Virus record (IMG/VR): IMGVR_UViG_2529292758_000013
Origin: a virus
Taxonomy: Duplodnaviria; Heunggongvirae; Uroviricota; Caudoviricetes
DNA length: 37,938 nucleotides
Strand: one strand, 5' to 3'
Shown piece after piece: positions 1 through 5,275 of the stretch. Every line of letters begins with the position of its first letter. Position 1 is the stretch's first letter. Position numbers and translations under genes: made by a program. Under the pieces are notes generated by a model that searched no databases, was not told the origin of the DNA, and saw nothing but the letters and a program-made list of their open reading frames with translations.

Positions 1-1053
1 TTACGGGGTAATGCCAACCGCTGCCGCCACTTTGTCGCCACTTGGCAGCGTTGCCAGAGGATTGAAACGGAGCGCCGTTTCCAGATGATCCGGTGCCAGA
101 TGTGCGTAACGCATAGTCATTTTTATATCGTGGTGTCCGAGAATTTTTTGTAAGGCCAGAATGTTTCCACCCGACATCATGAAGTGCGCCGCAAACGTAT
201 GGCGCAGAACGTGTGTGAGTTGACCGCGAGGGAGCACGATAGACGTTTTTTCCATCACGGATAAAAATTGAAAATAGCAGTCTGTGAAGAAATTGAACCC
301 ATCAAGCGCCATGATCTCTTCGTAAAGCTCTTTACTGATAGGGATGCTTCTGTTTTTCTTCCCCTTCGTTCTTACAAAGGTAATTCGGTATTTGGTCACC
401 TGTGAGCGGGTAAGATTTACGGCTTCTCGCCAGCGTGCGCCTGTGCTTAAGCATATCTTAACTACCAGTGCCAGAATTGGGTCCTGACGTTTGCAATCAG
501 CCAGTAATTCAACAATCTGCTCATGGGTAAGCCATGCCATCTCTTTTTCTGCGATGGTGAATTTTCGCATGTTCTCCAGTGGGTTCGGATACGACCATTC
601 GCCCAGGCGGGATAGTTCGCTAAAAACACTACTTAGATAGCTTTGCTCCAGGTTAATGGTGACCGGGCTTGCTCCTTTCTTCCATTTCTCGCTGAAGTAG
701 ATCTCACCTGTCAGGCGTTTATCTCGATAGTGGGCAAACATTTTAGAGGTTAGATCAGTTGCAAGGGGATTGCCCAGAGCGTCAACCATCAGCAGCAATT
801 TGTCATAGACATGCTGCCCAGCAGTCAGAGATTTACCATGTAGTTTGAACCATAGCTCAACCACGTCTTTCAGTGTTCGACGATCCACTGATTCACCCAG
901 CCAGGGCTTTGCTTCGGTTTCTTCCATCGTGTGACGCTCAAAAGCCAGTGCTTCGCCTTTGGTGGCGAATTGTTTACGCACACGACGCCCACTACGTCCG
1001 GCGGGGTAACATTCGCAAAGCCATTTTCCTGTGGTGAGTTTTCGTACAGCCAT
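1..1053 (-). CDS. int: Phage tyrosine integrase (P2/186 family); reading frame runs to the window edge, so the C-terminal end/stop may lie outside
   Basis: Translation from the Met at 1053 (MAVRKLTTGKW...) resembles P2-type Int N-terminus from memory; tyrosine-recombinase boxes present (LSTGARWREA; HVLRHTFAAHF...GHHDIKMTMRYAHL). The 6-frame ORF start at 1131 is probably an upstream extension. Confidence 0.88.
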   Translation of the reverse strand: MAVRKLTTGKWLCECYPAGRSGRRVRKQFATKGEALAFERHTMEETEAKPWLGESVDRRTLKDVVELWFKLHGKSLTAGQHVYDKLLLMVDALGNPLATDLTSKMFAHYRDKRLTGEIYFSEKWKKGASPVTINLEQSYLSSVFSELSRLGEWSYPNPLENMRKFTIAEKEMAWLTHEQIVELLADCKRQDPILALVVKICLSTGARWREAVNLTRSQVTKYRITFVRTKGKKNRSIPISKELYEEIMALDGFNFFTDCYFQFLSVMEKTSIVLPRGQLTHVLRHTFAAHFMMSGGNILALQKILGHHDIKMTMRYAHLAPDHLETALRFNPLATLPSGDKVAAAVGITP

Positions 1054-1132
1054 AAAAAATGCCCTCCAGTGGAGAGCATTTTTACTGTATATATAACCAG
1101 TGTCAATGTATGAATTTGTATAGCCATACATA

Positions 1133-2464
1133 TCACTGAAGTAAAAAAACTTTTAAAGCATCTTTCACAATATTTGTTGGTTCACCAATACCGCCACCAC
1201 CTTTTAAAAAATGGTATTCACTCATTTCTGCCCATTGTCTTTTTATATTTTCCTCAGCAGGTAAAAGAGATGAGTTTTCAGATAAGTATTTGTAAACTAT
1301 TCCAAATATAGCATATTCATAATTATCTACATTATATTCACTTGTTTGATATGAAAATTTAGATAAACCAAACAATTTCATGATTGATTGAGCATCAACT
1401 TTATCTTCAAGAAAGTTGAGAGCTAACTCTCGGTTAAAAGTGTAGATTATTATCGCTAGAGTCCTGTAATAACAATATCCATAAATATATTTGTTGCTAA
1501 TTTTGTCGCCTGATAGTAGTTGGTATATTTCAACATATCTAGCAAGTGTTTCAACCTCACGTAATGATAATTTTCTACTTTCAATGAACTGTAAGAAAAT
1601 ATCTTCGCTGGCTTCTACTGCAGCGGTCAGCCTTTCAGATTGCTCACATAGCATCATCCAATGATTTTTGGAAGTTAAAGTGTCATTATAATTATCTTCC
1701 TTAAAGGTAACAGGAAGGCTGTATGTAAATTTTATAAATTTGTCAAGATAACGGTTGGAGTCTACAGAAGAGCCATAGATATGATTTATGGATGCTTTTA
1801 GTTGAGTTGTGTTTGCAATTAATAAAAAGTTAATGTTTTTTATATCAAAAACATGTTTTATATTTTCAATAATAGAAATGGCAAAACTAGGCTTACATCT
1901 GTCTAACTCATCTATAATTATTGTTAGTTTACTTTCTCCAGCTAATTTGGTTAGTACTTCTTTTAGAGCAAGAACGTTCTTTTGTGCCTCGATATGATCT
2001 TCTAACAGAGCCTCGATGGTTCCATCGATAGCTGAATTTGCAGCGTCTTTGATAACCTCTTCAAATTCCTCATTAATTTCATCCGCATTTTGTTTTAATA
2101 CCCAACCAGCACCAGCTTTGAGTACAGTCTTAAGTCCGAATCTGAGGGCTGGCAATGCCTTAGATATTAATTCCTTTTTTTCATCGCTATTATATAGAGC
2201 TGCAATTGCGGCCATTATTGTAAGTATGGGAGCATCGTTGTGATCTTCAGTAAAAGCATCTATATAAACTACTTTATGATTGGTCGAGTTTATTTCAATT
2301 AAGGATGCTAACTTTTTTGAAAACTCTGTTTTTCCAGTCCCCCAGTCCCCATCTATGACCATAGGTGAAACAGGAATATTAGACTCTAGCAAACTTATTA
2401 TTTTTTCTGCAATGGCTTTTCTTTTATATTCATCACGTATATCGAAAGTTATATCTGTGCTCAT
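1133..2464 (-). CDS. KAP-family P-loop NTPase (accessory cargo gene)
   Basis: Walker A GDWGTGKT and KAP-type Walker B IIIDELDRC seen in translation; SD-like AAGGA upstream of ATG at 2464; visibly AT-rich compared with the phage backbone. Confidence 0.75.
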   Translation of the reverse strand: MSTDITFDIRDEYKRKAIAEKIISLLESNIPVSPMVIDGDWGTGKTEFSKKLASLIEINSTNHKVVYIDAFTEDHNDAPILTIMAAIAALYNSDEKKELISKALPALRFGLKTVLKAGAGWVLKQNADEINEEFEEVIKDAANSAIDGTIEALLEDHIEAQKNVLALKEVLTKLAGESKLTIIIDELDRCKPSFAISIIENIKHVFDIKNINFLLIANTTQLKASINHIYGSSVDSNRYLDKFIKFTYSLPVTFKEDNYNDTLTSKNHWMMLCEQSERLTAAVEASEDIFLQFIESRKLSLREVETLARYVEIYQLLSGDKISNKYIYGYCYYRTLAIIIYTFNRELALNFLEDKVDAQSIMKLFGLSKFSYQTSEYNVDNYEYAIFGIVYKYLSENSSLLPAEENIKRQWAEMSEYHFLKGGGGIGEPTNIVKDALKVFLLQ

Positions 2465-2477
2465 TCATATTTCCTTA

Positions 2478-2660
2478 TTATTTGATGCATGTTTTTTTGG
2501 ATTTACTGATGGTTCCATCATTGCAAACAAATTTTCCATCAGAGGTACAGTGAGAGACACCTCCCTTTTTCCCAGAACAAGGATAATTTTTAGCATAGGT
2601 AGTTAGTGGGTTTAATAACAAAGAGCATGATAAAACCACAAAAAAAAACTTACCAAGCAT
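2478..2660 (-). CDS. Small secreted Cys-rich protein (60 aa) with predicted signal peptide, co-oriented with and 14 bp upstream of the KAP NTPase
   Basis: Hydrophobic N-terminus ([23 protein letters not shown]) followed by a 37-aa mature part with 4 Cys; strong SD GGAGGA 4 nt before ATG at 2660. Confidence 0.55.
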
Positions 2661-2675
2661 AGTTTCCTCCAGGTA

Positions 2676-3332
2676 TTATCTAACATACTTAACTGTTAAG
2701 CTTATAATTTTTCCAATTATTTCAACATCTTCTATCTTGCACTCGAAGGCTCTGTTTCCACCTTCAACGAAAATTCTTCCACCGGGTAAACGAGTGATGT
2801 CGCGGATTGTTATTTCGCCATCAATACTTATTACCCATTTACCATCACGTATATCATCAAATTCTTTATCACAAATAAATTCAGAATTGTTATCTGTGAT
2901 GACAAAAGGTTTTTTAAACGTAGAGGGTAGAAATCCCTTATCAAAAATATAAAAACCGTCTTCCTGCAATGCTCCATCAGACAATAAATATTTTACTACT
3001 TCTATAGTATTTGTATTTGCTGATGCTTGCTTTGAACCATGCCCTGTTGTTAGCCAATTAAGCGAGGTACCCGTTTCAAGGGCGCACTGGATTACCCAAT
3101 CTGCCGGAAAAATATCACGCATATAACGCGTTGCCATGGTGCTCTTAGAAACACCTAAATGATCACAGAGAGCCTGACGGGTACCGAACCCGTATGCTTC
3201 AACCAAACGTTCTATGGCTTTCTTACCGCCGCTATTGAAATCCACAAATCCTCCAAAGAAATCCAAAATTCGTTGACAGATTCCAAAAGCGATCTTAAAG
3301 TTGAACCAGAAGTCTTCTTTTGGAGCCTTCAC
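2676..3332 (-). CDS. cI: Phage immunity repressor, 186 CI-like (start codon uncertain, true start probably downstream of 3332)
   Basis: HTH-like segment (ALCDHLGVSKSTMATRYMRD...CALETGTSLNWLTTGHG) resembling the 186 CI N-terminal domain from memory; sits between int cargo and the Apl/CII operon on the opposite strand. Confidence 0.7.
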   Translation of the reverse strand: MKAPKEDFWFNFKIAFGICQRILDFFGGFVDFNSGGKKAIERLVEAYGFGTRQALCDHLGVSKSTMATRYMRDIFPADWVIQCALETGTSLNWLTTGHGSKQASANTNTIEVVKYLLSDGALQEDGFYIFDKGFLPSTFKKPFVITDNNSEFICDKEFDDIRDGKWVISIDGEITIRDITRLPGGRIFVEGGNRAFECKIEDVEIIGKIISLTVKYVR

Positions 3333-3390
3333 TACTAATCACGACAAACAACGGCTCGCCACAAGCCATATCTAGAAGGAATGTTGCCTT
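3333..3390. promoter_or_regulatory. Lysis-lysogeny switch intergenic region between the repressor and the early lytic operon (operators and promoters not resolved)
   Basis: Short intergenic region between a leftward repressor gene and the rightward apl/cII genes; assignment by position only. Confidence 0.35.
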
Positions 3391-3594
3391 ATGACACCTA
3401 ACATTTCAATTACTCTGAATACACCACATGTCACAATCGAACGTTATAGCGAACTGACTGGCCTTTCTATTGATACGATTAACGACATGTTGGCTGATGG
3501 CCGACTACCTCGTCATCGTCTTCGTAAAGACAAAAAACGTGAAAAGGTAATGATTAACCTGGCTGCTCTGACTGTTGATGCTTTGTCTGCTTAA
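3391..3594 (+). CDS. apl: Small HTH protein, Apl/Cox-like (first gene of the early lytic operon)
   Basis: 67-aa ORF with SD GAAGGA 9 nt upstream; HTH-like [25 protein letters not shown]; position immediately upstream of cII. Confidence 0.55.
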
Positions 3595-3658
3595 TAGACG
3601 TCTATTTTCGCAATAAGACGCTGAGTTCGATTTTGCGATAAGTTCGGAATTGAAAACC

Positions 3659-4168
3659 ATGTTTGATTACCAAGTTTCCAAACATCCACATTTTGATGAA
3701 GCCTGTCGTGCATTCGCACTGCGCCACAACCTGGTGCAGCTGGCAGGACGTGCAGGAATGAATGTGCAGATTCTGCGAAACAAGTTGAACCCTGCTCAAC
3801 CTCATTTATTAACCGCACCAGAAATTTGGCTGCTTACCGATCTGACTGAAGATTCGACGCTGGTAGATGGCTTTCTGGCTCAGATTCACTGTCTGCCATG
3901 TGTACCGATTAATGAGGTAGCAAAAGAGAAACTGCCACATTACGTCATGAGTGCAACCGCAGAGATCGGACGTGTTGCTGCAGGTGCGGTATCTGGCGAT
4001 GTAAAAACCAGTGCAGGTCGTCGTGATGCTATCAGCAGCATTAACTCTGTAACACGACTGATGGCGCTGGCTGCTGTTTCATTGCAGGCCCGTTTACAGG
4101 CTAATCCTGCGATGGCGAGTGCAGTTGATACCGTGACTGGCCTCGGTGCTTCATTCGGTTTGCTGTGA
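3659..4168 (+). CDS. cII: Phage 186-type CII regulatory protein
   Basis: Translation [24 protein letters not shown]...[24 protein letters not shown] matches the 186 CII protein as I recall it; ATG at 3659 (an in-frame TTG at 3650 is an alternative). Confidence 0.8.
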
Positions 4169-4175
4169 GGTGCTT

Positions 4176-4409
4176 ATGCTGACGAAAGAACCATCATTTG
4201 CATCGCTGCTGGTAAAACAAAGTCCGGCAATGCACTACGGTCACGGCTGGATTTATTTACCTTGTGGGAAAAAGTGGCATCCAAGTTTTGAATTACAACC
4301 CCGGCAACAGGCTTACCGGGGAAGAAATAAAAAGCGATTCCTACAAAGATTTATGGTTAACGTGGCAAACAACCTGCGAACCAAGCGAAAAGTTTTTCTT
4401 GGAAGCTGA
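4176..4409 (+). CDS. Hypothetical early protein (77 aa); its N-terminal segment is duplicated at 4996-5055
   Basis: SD GAGGTG 3 nt before ATG 4176, directly after the cII stop; C-terminal part overlaps the reverse-strand ORF 4357-4815. Confidence 0.4.
   Translation: MLTKEPSFASLLVKQSPAMHYGHGWIYLPCGKKWHPSFELQPRQQAYRGRNKKRFLQRFMVNVANNLRTKRKVFLGS
4193..4252. repeat. 60-bp direct repeat, copy 1 (59/60 identical to 4996-5055)
   Basis: ATCATTTGCATCGCTGCTGGTAAAACAAAG[T/C]CCGGCAATGCACTACGGTCACGGCTGGAT read at both positions. Confidence 0.9.
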
Positions 4410-4815
4410 GGTTTACATCGTCAACCCGACCACAGGCAATAGCAGCTCTTTTGTAGGCAGGGTTTAACAAAGATCCGAATGTTGTGGAGTCAGAGTGATG
4501 CAAAGCTTTCAATTTTTGTGCAATGAACTGTGGAGACAATTCATCCTCGGCGTAAAGCAACTCACCATATTGTCGGCTTTGTACGCTTGCTCGTTCCGCA
4601 ATAATAGCTGGTTGCCATACAAGTTGGATTGTTGCGATTACAACAACAGGAAAAGCGAACAACCATTCCAGACCTGTATTAGCAAATACAGCTGTTCCGC
4701 TTATAAGTTGGATTGCTGTCATTAATTTATCAGCTCGACCATGGAACGTTGCTGTCATTAGTTCAAGGTAATAACAGTAGTGTAATTGGAAGTATTCGGA
4801 GCTTTGTTTAGTCAT
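4357..4815 (-). CDS. Hypothetical protein with a hydrophobic (probably membrane) segment; reverse-strand cargo inside the early region
   Basis: 152-aa ORF on the opposite strand to the early operon; hydrophobic stretch LISGTAVFANTGLEWLFAFPVVVIATIQLVW; bounded by the 60-bp direct repeats. Confidence 0.45.
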   Translation of the reverse strand: MTKQSSEYFQLHYCYYLELMTATFHGRADKLMTAIQLISGTAVFANTGLEWLFAFPVVVIATIQLVWQPAIIAERASVQSRQYGELLYAEDELSPQFIAQKLKALHHSDSTTFGSLLNPAYKRAAIACGRVDDVNLSFQEKLFAWFAGCLPR

Positions 4816-4824
4816 GCCGGATTC

Positions 4825-4905
4825 CTATTTCTTCTCTTGCCCCGGTTCAGGCTGAGGTGCTGGAGCCGGGCGAGGGAGTACATGAAAGTTGTCTGTTTCT
4901 GACAT
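4825..4905 (-). CDS. Possible 26-aa Pro-rich peptide (MSETDNFHVLPRPAPAPQPEPGQEKK) immediately upstream of the 152-aa reverse-strand ORF
   Basis: ATG at 4903-4905 preceded on the minus strand by AAAGGAGAAAA; stop at 4825-4827; 9 bp before the next reverse-strand start. Confidence 0.25.
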   Translation of the reverse strand: MSETDNFHVLPRPAPAPQPEPGQEKK

Positions 4906-4995
4906 CAGTTTTCTCCTTTGAGGGGTAGATGATTGTTAGCACAAATAGTCTACCACTGAGGCACGCGCCGGGCGTGTAGAAAAATTCCCGGCACA

Positions 4996-5055
4996 ATCAT
5001 TTGCATCGCTGCTGGTAAAACAAAGCCCGGCAATGCACTACGGTCACGGCTGGAT
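4996..5055. repeat. 60-bp direct repeat, copy 2
   Basis: See copy 1; the two copies bracket the reverse-strand cassette 4357-4905. Confidence 0.9.
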
Positions 5056-5275
5056 CATGGGTGAGGATGGTAAACGCTGGCATCCATGTTATTCACAAGA
5101 TGAATTGCTGTCTGAAGTGACCACGAGGAAACGGAGAAAGTCCAAATGTATGCGGCAGAAAGTGAAGTGGTTTATCAGTTTCGTTACAGAGGGGATAGTT
5201 ATTCAGTACCTGAAGATGATTTGCTCTGTTGTTATCCGTCGTTGTCGGGCGATGGCAGTTACTTTTTCACACTAA
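5033..5275 (+). other. Diverged second copy of the gene begun at 4176 (shares MHYGHGWI...GK[KR]WHP); lacks an obvious RBS, coding status uncertain
   Basis: Upstream in-frame stop at 4946-4948 and no SD before ATG 5033; overlaps the 5146-5370 ORF in another frame. Confidence 0.3.

Follow-up and report, generated by a model that had tools for sequence, protein, structure and literature searches.

In an Escherichia coli prophage, what do two adenine- and thymine-rich (AT-rich) genes do in the interval from the repressor gene to the integrase gene, and do they act together? The locus lies at the left end of IMG/VR record IMGVR_UViG_2529292758_000013, a 37,938-nucleotide stretch of DNA referred to here as the window. 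The window is a complete 186-like (Peduoviridae) E. coli prophage, and the genes rcdA and ybjL flank its insertion site. Chromosomal prophages of E. coli CI5, NC101, NGF1, and other strains are 100% identical to it. The minus-strand order is int, encoding the integrase, a gene for a KAP-family P-loop nucleoside triphosphatase (NTPase), a gene for a 60-residue YdcA-family peptide, and the 186-type repressor gene cI. An earlier reading of the letters alone, the first-pass annotation, had taken the two middle genes for an inserted pair with a role in lysogenic conversion, superinfection exclusion, or anti-phage defence. Its observation is confirmed and its interpretation is partly supported. The interval between cI and int is a cargo hotspot of a known kind, and this locus is an ordinary case of it, not a new two-gene system. 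ydcA and the KAP gene are independent accessory genes, not a pair, because all four combinations of their presence and absence occur.

Both genes are real and not chance open reading frames (ORFs), judging from sequence comparisons, because they match Pfam, NCBIfam, and phrog families and have 1,366 KAP (E <= 1e-10) and 64 YdcA homologues, the latter with invariant cysteines. All the ORFs described in the first-pass annotation were found, including the 60-residue signal-peptide protein with four Cys. The genes lie on the same strand and have GC contents of 32.7% (KAP) and 33.9% (ydcA), compared to 38.6% for cI and 51% for the rest of the prophage. GGAGGA precedes the peptide gene and AAGGA precedes the KAP gene, in agreement with the strong Shine-Dalgarno sequences described earlier. 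The gap of 15 bp between cI and ydcA was correctly given (2661-2675); the gap between ydcA and the KAP gene is 13 bp (2465-2477) and not 14. The first-pass description is upheld on this point: the two genes are AT-rich cargo of an accessory kind, within a transcription unit that runs leftward from cI to int in a 186-like prophage.

The two genes differ widely in how often they occur. In a census of 5,426 complete E. coli genomes, this ydcA allele lies behind cI in 628 and the KAP allele is found in 34. The order cI-ydcA-int without a KAP gene occurs in ~594 of the genomes and is ~17 times commoner than ydcA with KAP. The distribution of the KAP NTPase is that of a rare accessory gene (123 of the 5,426 genomes, 2.3%). 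Among the prophages inspected, those of E. coli B, AH19D088, S163-2, and others have cI, a 63-residue version of ydcA, and int at the same rcdA site. A secreted-type peptide is very common in this slot, with ydcA present there in ~11% of complete E. coli genomes.

Alignment with ydcA-only prophages shows what was added. Against three of them (L005, L004, and L007), blastn homology is confined to positions 1-1141 (95-98% identity) and 2492-3218 (86-90%), with breakpoints at 1141/1142 and 2491/2492. Between these breakpoints lies a window-specific segment of 1,350 bp. It comprises all but the last three codons of the KAP gene, together with the 13-bp spacer and the final codons of ydcA. The KAP stop codon falls in sequence that is common to KAP-less prophages, and the fourth Cys of YdcA is retained in the versions with and without KAP. 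The comparison of related cI-int intervals, which the first-pass annotation had suggested as a way to confirm an insertion, bears the insertion out for the KAP segment. Prophages that are near-identical in int and ~90% identical in cI exist with and without the cassette and provide a natural comparison.

KAP genes also occur without ydcA. In E. coli, a 55% allele directly follows cI, and the same arrangement is seen in Serratia, for a 483-residue KAP protein, and in IMG/VR contigs. In Yersinia, a KAP relative follows the gene of a 160-residue cytoplasmic protein. Others lie in a Salmonella island beside a primase-helicase gene, in a Photobacterium island, and in a Citrobacter lambdoid prophage beside Q. 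Of 80 KAP loci in IMG/VR, 28 occupy the 186-type cI-int slot (10 with ydcA and 18 without), and ~47 lie beside lambdoid Q. The lambdoid loci (also L028 and L029) have the KAP gene convergent with Q, between Q and the lysis cassette, and no ydcA. PDC-S20, the PADLOC candidate family to which this KAP gene belongs (see below), alternates in this way between the cI-int moron slot of 186-like prophages and the Q-lysis moron slot of lambdoid prophages, which is an addition to what was known. No partner gene is conserved: the upstream neighbour is ydcA, the 160-residue gene, or none, and the downstream neighbour is int, lambdoid Q, or a 223-residue gene.

The "gene pair" of the first-pass annotation does not survive these counts. 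The secreted peptide and the NTPase could still be one two-component system, for example with the peptide sensing or gating at the envelope and the NTPase executing the response. The genes are adjacent on one strand with a short gap, and the ydcA-KAP order is kept in three alleles (100%, 71%, and 67% KAP identity) from E. coli and Enterobacter. The two diverged alleles stand in immunity modules in which cI, ydcA, and KAP are similarly diverged and int is not. This weighs against full independence: some long-term ydcA-KAP linkage exists, the arrangement is old in one lineage, and a functional interaction is possible there. A 56% KAP allele also has ydcA upstream. Against a single system, ydcA alone is far commoner than the two together, 70 of the 80 IMG/VR KAP loci lack ydcA, and the same 55-56% allele is seen in IMG/VR both with and without it. 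ydcA-like genes are found in Moraxella phage tail modules and on the E. coli chromosome without any KAP gene. Moreover, the KAP protein has no membrane segment to receive a periplasmic signal, and PADLOC models it as a single-gene candidate. A two-component system is very unlikely on this evidence, and independent accessory genes in one slot are the preferred reading.

The slot itself is variable. Relatives integrated at this rcdA site have int genes that are 92-98% identical, and in them cI/cII and int flank interchangeable unrelated genes: ydcA alone, ydcA with KAP, KAP alone (including the 483-residue protein), a 558-residue DUF4041 protein, or a 488-residue orphan. Klebsiella phage 4LV2017 carries a 349-residue orphan there. 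The claim that repressor and integrase genes are normally adjacent does not hold for this lineage, where the slot is usually occupied. ydcA is its common resident, and cassettes are added behind ydcA or replace it. A further addition to current knowledge is that a large lineage of E. coli prophages has ydcA behind cI by default, as do the Haemophilus phages HP2 and S2.

Similar sites have been described in the P2 family. Rousset et al. (2022, PMC9122126) describe a cI-int hotspot in Vibrio phages that are P2-related and K139-like, and P2-like prophages have minor integrase-primase and integrase-att hotspots (bioRxiv 10.64898/2026.02.27.708500). The published hotspots likewise hold variable accessory or defence genes between repressor and integrase. 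In contrast to the Vibrio hotspot, the present one is found in a 186-like phage of E. coli and has ydcA as a common resident. The principal P2 hotspots examined to date in E. coli are at other sites, the GpA-portal and tail regions. Current ideas are not overturned; one more prophage cargo hotspot with a defence candidate is added.

The KAP assignment made in the first-pass annotation stands. The 443-residue protein matches PF07693 with 182.5 bits (cut-off 20), its residues 15-316 aligning to profile positions 1-291 of 293. The Walker A motif GDWGTGKT (residues 39-46) lies within DGDWGTGKTEF (38-48), and the Walker B region is IIIDELDRC (182-190). Among 37 homologues, G39, W41, G42, G44, K45, D185, E186, L187, D188, R189, and C190 are invariant. 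The first-pass annotation had recognised no named system here and had suggested a PADLOC search, which matched the KAP gene to the single-gene candidate PDC-S20 (PDLC04956). The match is full-length (2.4e-171, 569 bits, residues 1-441 on 1-447 of 450) and places the protein in PDC-S20. The length class (~440-450 residues), single-gene behaviour, and mobile-element location are those of PDC-S20, with no structural difference. The statement that this is not a named system therefore fails for the KAP protein; the peptide belongs to a named, uncharacterised family, YdcA. At 90%-identity clustering, the KAP sequence falls in a cluster of 4,523 members, of which the representative and those listed are integrases. 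Gene calls fused over the 1-bp junction between the KAP and int ORFs presumably produced this artefact. The KAP homologue search has no self-match because the sequence is clustered among integrases.

Several KAP-domain anti-phage proteins were compared with the 443-residue protein. PifA of the F plasmid, QatA, Tmn, EF_KAP of Enterococcus, and Reve of P4 satellites share with it the P-loop core with GxWGxGKT and DELDR motifs, a non-conserved C-terminal region after the core, and carriage on mobile elements. None of them is the same system. PifA matches only in the N-terminal NTPase part (residues 11-252 on 17-255 of a 720-position profile, 7e-16). QatA was rejected because the NF041923 score is 41 bits against a cut-off of 600 and the neighbours are ydcA and int, with no QatBCD partner genes. 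Similarity to the validated P4-encoded Reve, whose ORF was taken from the supplementary sequences of the preprint, is limited to the Walker motif (BLASTP E = 0.007 over 14 residues). A membrane-anchored KAP of the Tmn/EF_KAP type was rejected, since Tmn and EF_KAP have transmembrane helices and the 443-residue protein has no hydrophobic segment. By hydropathy the protein is soluble, with a maximum 19-residue Kyte-Doolittle mean of 0.93, well below the level of membrane helices. Membrane segments are typical of many KAP members and not universal (Aravind et al. 2004, as related in papers citing it). In the present protein, the insert at residues 97-176 is amphipathic, and low-confidence helices (109-151) are predicted where other KAP proteins place their membrane helices.

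An AlphaFold2 model built with the 37 homologues (predicted local distance difference test score 81, predicted template modelling score 0.77) has an AAA+-like core and a helical C-terminal domain. The NTPase core comprises residues ~15-316, with a mean family identity of 51-62%. The variable helical domain comprises the last 127 residues (317-443), where identity is only 23%. In a Foldseek search with this model, the best solved fold is RdrA of the RADAR system (PDB 8HR8, 8FNU; E = 5e-6, probability 1.0), followed by ORC, Cdc6, and RFC. The likeness to RdrA, which forms rings, lies in the AAA+-like core. Template modelling (TM) scores are ~0.4 for the query and 0.24 for the target, and identity is 11-16%. 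RdrA is ~800 residues long and has the deaminase RdrB as a partner, whereas no rdrB-like gene is present at the KAP locus.

We hold, with moderate confidence, that the slot carries two accessory genes of separate function, a KAP NTPase that blocks phage and a YdcA peptide that acts at the envelope. In this proposal, the KAP gene is a single-gene cassette of 1.35 kb that entered between ydcA and the leader of int. It and ydcA would be transcribed together with cI, from pL in the lysogen and, during establishment, from pE. The KAP protein would be cytoplasmic and, by the resemblance of its AAA+-like core to RdrA, ORC, and RFC, probably oligomerises. Its fast-evolving C-terminal helical domain would recognise a component of the infecting phage, and NTP-driven switching would then block or abort infection, as for PifA, Tmn, EF_KAP, and Reve. 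KAP-domain proteins have been validated experimentally as defences elsewhere (EF_KAP, PMC12632615; Tmn; Reve). The anti-phage activity of EF_KAP depends on its Walker B motif (PMC12632615), and Reve protects against Drexlerviridae. For the 443-residue protein, an anti-phage role appears on balance probable. The PDC-S20 match, the weaker PifA and QatA matches, the RdrA fold, AT-richness, and the variable C-terminus all point to it, as do recurrence in two classical prophage moron slots and a rare accessory distribution. A lysogen-expressed role in defence, exclusion, or conversion, as proposed in the first-pass annotation, is judged the most reasonable reading.

Several observations count against this proposal. 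PADLOC "PDC" entries are candidates only, the defence role of PDC-S20 is only predicted, and a search for "PDC-S20" across the searchable literature library returned no paper naming it. No effector domain was recognisable in the KAP NTPase by domain-profile and PDB searches. The family profile found no sequence match in the PDB, leaving the protein without a solved homologue by sequence, and the RdrA fold match is weak at the TM score given above. A promoter scan gave 8 sites where 10.4 are expected from shuffled sequences, and transcription from pL is what we infer from gene layout. Lastly, a YdcA phenotype is known only for the chromosomal paralogue, in organic-acid tolerance (PMC7642389), and for none in phage.

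Instead of blocking phage, the KAP NTPase might modulate lysogeny or induction, act as an addiction-type selfish gene, or be a neutral passenger. "PDC" is a guilt-by-association category, the protein lacks an effector domain, and AAA+/ORC-like folds also serve replication and remodelling. A second, unrelated KAP gene, of the PDC-S49 type, occupies another hotspot of the same prophage, so KAP genes are perhaps just frequent cargo. The distribution argues the other way. The gene is patchy in E. coli, and its movement between 186-like and lambdoid slots speaks against a life-cycle role specific to one lineage. A conserved core with a hypervariable C-terminus is typical of arms-race sensors, and all KAP-domain proteins tested from mobile-element hotspots conferred phage resistance. 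A non-defence role is unlikely in light of these points. If the KAP protein does protect, PDC-S20 would become a validated single-gene defence, consisting of a soluble KAP protein with no recognisable effector domain. Such a result would be informative mechanistically, as only membrane-bound or larger KAP members have been tested so far.

The 60-residue peptide is a member of the YdcA family, with 108.8 bits against NF007463 (cut-off 93), a phrog_6000 match at 2e-32, and PF27300 matches on its homologues. E. coli YdcA (b1419; PF27300/PRK10040 family) belongs to the same family of proteins with a signal peptide and four Cys. Its chromosomal gene is present in many E. coli strains and shares ~75% DNA identity with the prophage copy, over part of the length only. 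The N-terminus of the prophage peptide is hydrophobic (19-residue Kyte-Doolittle mean 1.74), with a signal peptide predicted at residues 1-23. The mature part of 37 residues starts with KNYPC and has an isoelectric point of 9.5. An alignment of 25 family members shows a freely varying signal peptide and an almost invariant mature part, including C28, C38, C46, and C58, which are the same in all 25 sequences. This near-invariance spans Enterobacterales, Moraxella, Haemophilus, and Herbaspirillum. YdcA would be exported via Sec and cleaved after Thr-Tyr-Ala (residue 23) to give a lysine-rich periplasmic peptide with two disulfides. Acting separately from the KAP protein, it might serve in superinfection exclusion or in envelope or acid-stress tolerance through a conserved target, which is a weaker suggestion than that for the KAP protein.

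ydcA-like genes occur as morons in phages of several genera. In Haemophilus phage HP2 (NC_003315; L006 2920-3102), the stop codon of cI is where an unannotated 60-residue ORF of the YdcA family starts, and the same is true of S2. The repressor-then-YdcA order thus recurs in a distant P2-family phage. After this ORF, HP2 has first orf1, whose N-terminus resembles a signal peptide, and then int. Some database entries name the 63-residue YdcA variant a "conjugal transfer protein". No relevant paper turned up in literature searches for YdcA in connection with prophages.

A Foldseek search with a YdcA model gave no significant match, with Dis2 of Legionella ranking second. A search of the PDB with the YdcA profile also led to Dis2 (Lpg0823; 7MUC chain AN), which was the sole match; the E-value is 6.7e-5 if the signal peptide is retained and 0.09 if only the mature part is used. 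Dis2 is an outer-membrane-cap protein in the type IV secretion system Dot/Icm, located under the outer membrane. It has two lobes and five disulfides, and YdcA shares C-x-K-x-GG-x3-C-x4-G-x2-VCN-[DN]-G-x2-S with each of the two disulfide-pinned lobes. The relation is a lead and not demonstrated homology, because significance is lost once the signal peptide is removed.

The prophage peptide may instead be a host-fitness factor, conferring envelope or acid-stress tolerance by lysogenic conversion and taking no part in phage exclusion. Deletion of chromosomal ydcA makes E. coli W sensitive to 300 mM 3-hydroxypropionate, and acid-induced expression is cited in the same study (PMC7642389). The chromosomal copy in many strains fits such a role, and the near-constancy of the mature part in distant hosts is more in keeping with a conserved host target than with a rapidly evolving phage target. 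On the other side, ydcA is a recurrent phage moron that is twice found directly behind a P2-like repressor, in E. coli and in Haemophilus HP2/S2. The Glo protein of Vibrio phage K139 provides a parallel, having reportedly been implicated in exclusion by Nesper et al. in 1999. Glo is a periplasmic protein encoded between int and cI, where it is a family immunity gene (PMC4870250). Pure host fitness is a possibility to be taken seriously, and we would tentatively put it below even. A bolder idea is that YdcA is a widespread prophage periplasmic effector, perhaps a relative of the Dis2 lobes, that binds a conserved envelope structure to exclude phages or DNA and forms with the KAP protein a two-layer defence of envelope and cytoplasm. 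This is distinctly unlikely.

With regard to expression, cI, ydcA, and the KAP gene are probably co-transcribed in the lysogen from pL. The arrangement suggests this because the genes follow cI on the same strand across gaps of 15 and 13 bp, with no terminator between them and a strong hairpin downstream. The hairpin ends 1 nucleotide before the int ATG, its 3' arm holds the int GGAGG, and it is conserved in all cargo variants. On its downstream side, the cargo slot is bounded by this hairpin. The hairpin is terminator-like or attenuator-like and may limit pL read-through or gate int translation. As the scan found no excess of promoter-like sites over shuffled sequences, we propose no internal promoter. 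The plus-strand site facing the lytic genes is a candidate pR of a face-to-face pR/pL switch region because it lies between cI and an apl/cox-like gene and fits known 186 biology. A search of positions 1-5000 against Rfam gave no non-coding RNA match at E <= 1. The int frame is open over 1-1131, and the likely true start is the ATG at 1053, as indicated by RefSeq and by the P2/186 Int N-terminus. The cI frame is open up to 3332, and the GTG at 3245, with GGAGG 8 nucleotides upstream, is the likely start, as in RefSeq. The features of the locus, and of the other variable sites described after it, are given in Table 1.

Table 1. Positions of genes, segments, and signals in the window, with the evidence for each.
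Feature	Position	Strand	Evidence or remark
P2/186-type tyrosine integrase, int	1-1053	-	Pfam Int_N 3.8e-32, Phage_integrase 1.1e-21; RefSeq annotation in NC101
Hairpin, 13-bp stem plus U-run (terminator-like or attenuator-like)	1055-1083	-	sequence; fold of 1040-1125 (-): -24.8 kcal/mol, z = -5.1
Promoter-like site TTGACA-17-AAAAAT, upstream of int	1078-1106	-	consensus scan, 10/12 matches; weak
KAP-family P-loop NTPase, 443 aa	1133-2464	-	Pfam PF07693 1.4e-53; PADLOC PDLC04956; phrog_8614
Window-specific segment, 1,350 bp	1142-2491		blastn; replaces 123 bp of ydcA-only prophages
YdcA-family predicted secreted peptide, 60 aa	2478-2660	-	NCBIfam NF007463 8e-32; phrog_6000; PF27300 on homologues
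Mature part of YdcA peptide (predicted)	2481-2591	-	
Signal peptide of YdcA peptide (predicted)	2592-2660	-	
186-type CI repressor, cI	2676-3245	-	Pfam Phage_CI_repr 3.3e-31, Phage_CI_C 1.6e-28; RefSeq annotation
Promoter-like site TTGACA-17-TAAAGT, facing lytic genes (candidate pR)	3273-3301	+	consensus scan, 10/12 matches
apl/cox-like gene	3391-3594		
Fil-family fragments	4176-4409 and 5033-5275	+	
Orphan ORF, 152 aa	4357-4815	-	
Second KAP NTPase, 630 aa	10435-12327	+	KAP_NTPase 3.6e-21; PADLOC PDC-S49 1.5e-160
Orphan, 223 aa	12851-13522	+	
Orphan, 250 aa	22382-23134	-	

Other variable sites are found in this prophage and its relatives. Between int and the attachment site, relatives of this prophage (L004, L007, L016, L017, and L020) have a second variable slot, occupied by a DUF2971 protein, a Panacea-domain protein plus its 251-residue partner, or orphans of 89, 110, or 240 residues. 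The window begins at the int stop codon, and this slot lies beyond it. The main P2 hotspot, flanked by the replication and portal genes, encodes the second KAP NTPase, of 630 residues, and a 223-residue orphan. The 630-residue protein is unrelated to the 443-residue protein, having only the Walker A region in common with that protein and with Reve. One prophage thus carries two unrelated KAP NTPases (PDC-S20 and PDC-S49), which is another addition to the known picture. Neither Pfam nor PADLOC gives a match for the 152-residue orphan ORF, which lies on the opposite strand between two Fil-family gene fragments and resembles a further small insertion into the early region. The 250-residue orphan, for which Pfam and PADLOC likewise give no match, is encoded on the opposite strand between a virion-morphogenesis gene and baseplate gene V, where P2-like phages have their tail-region accessory slot.

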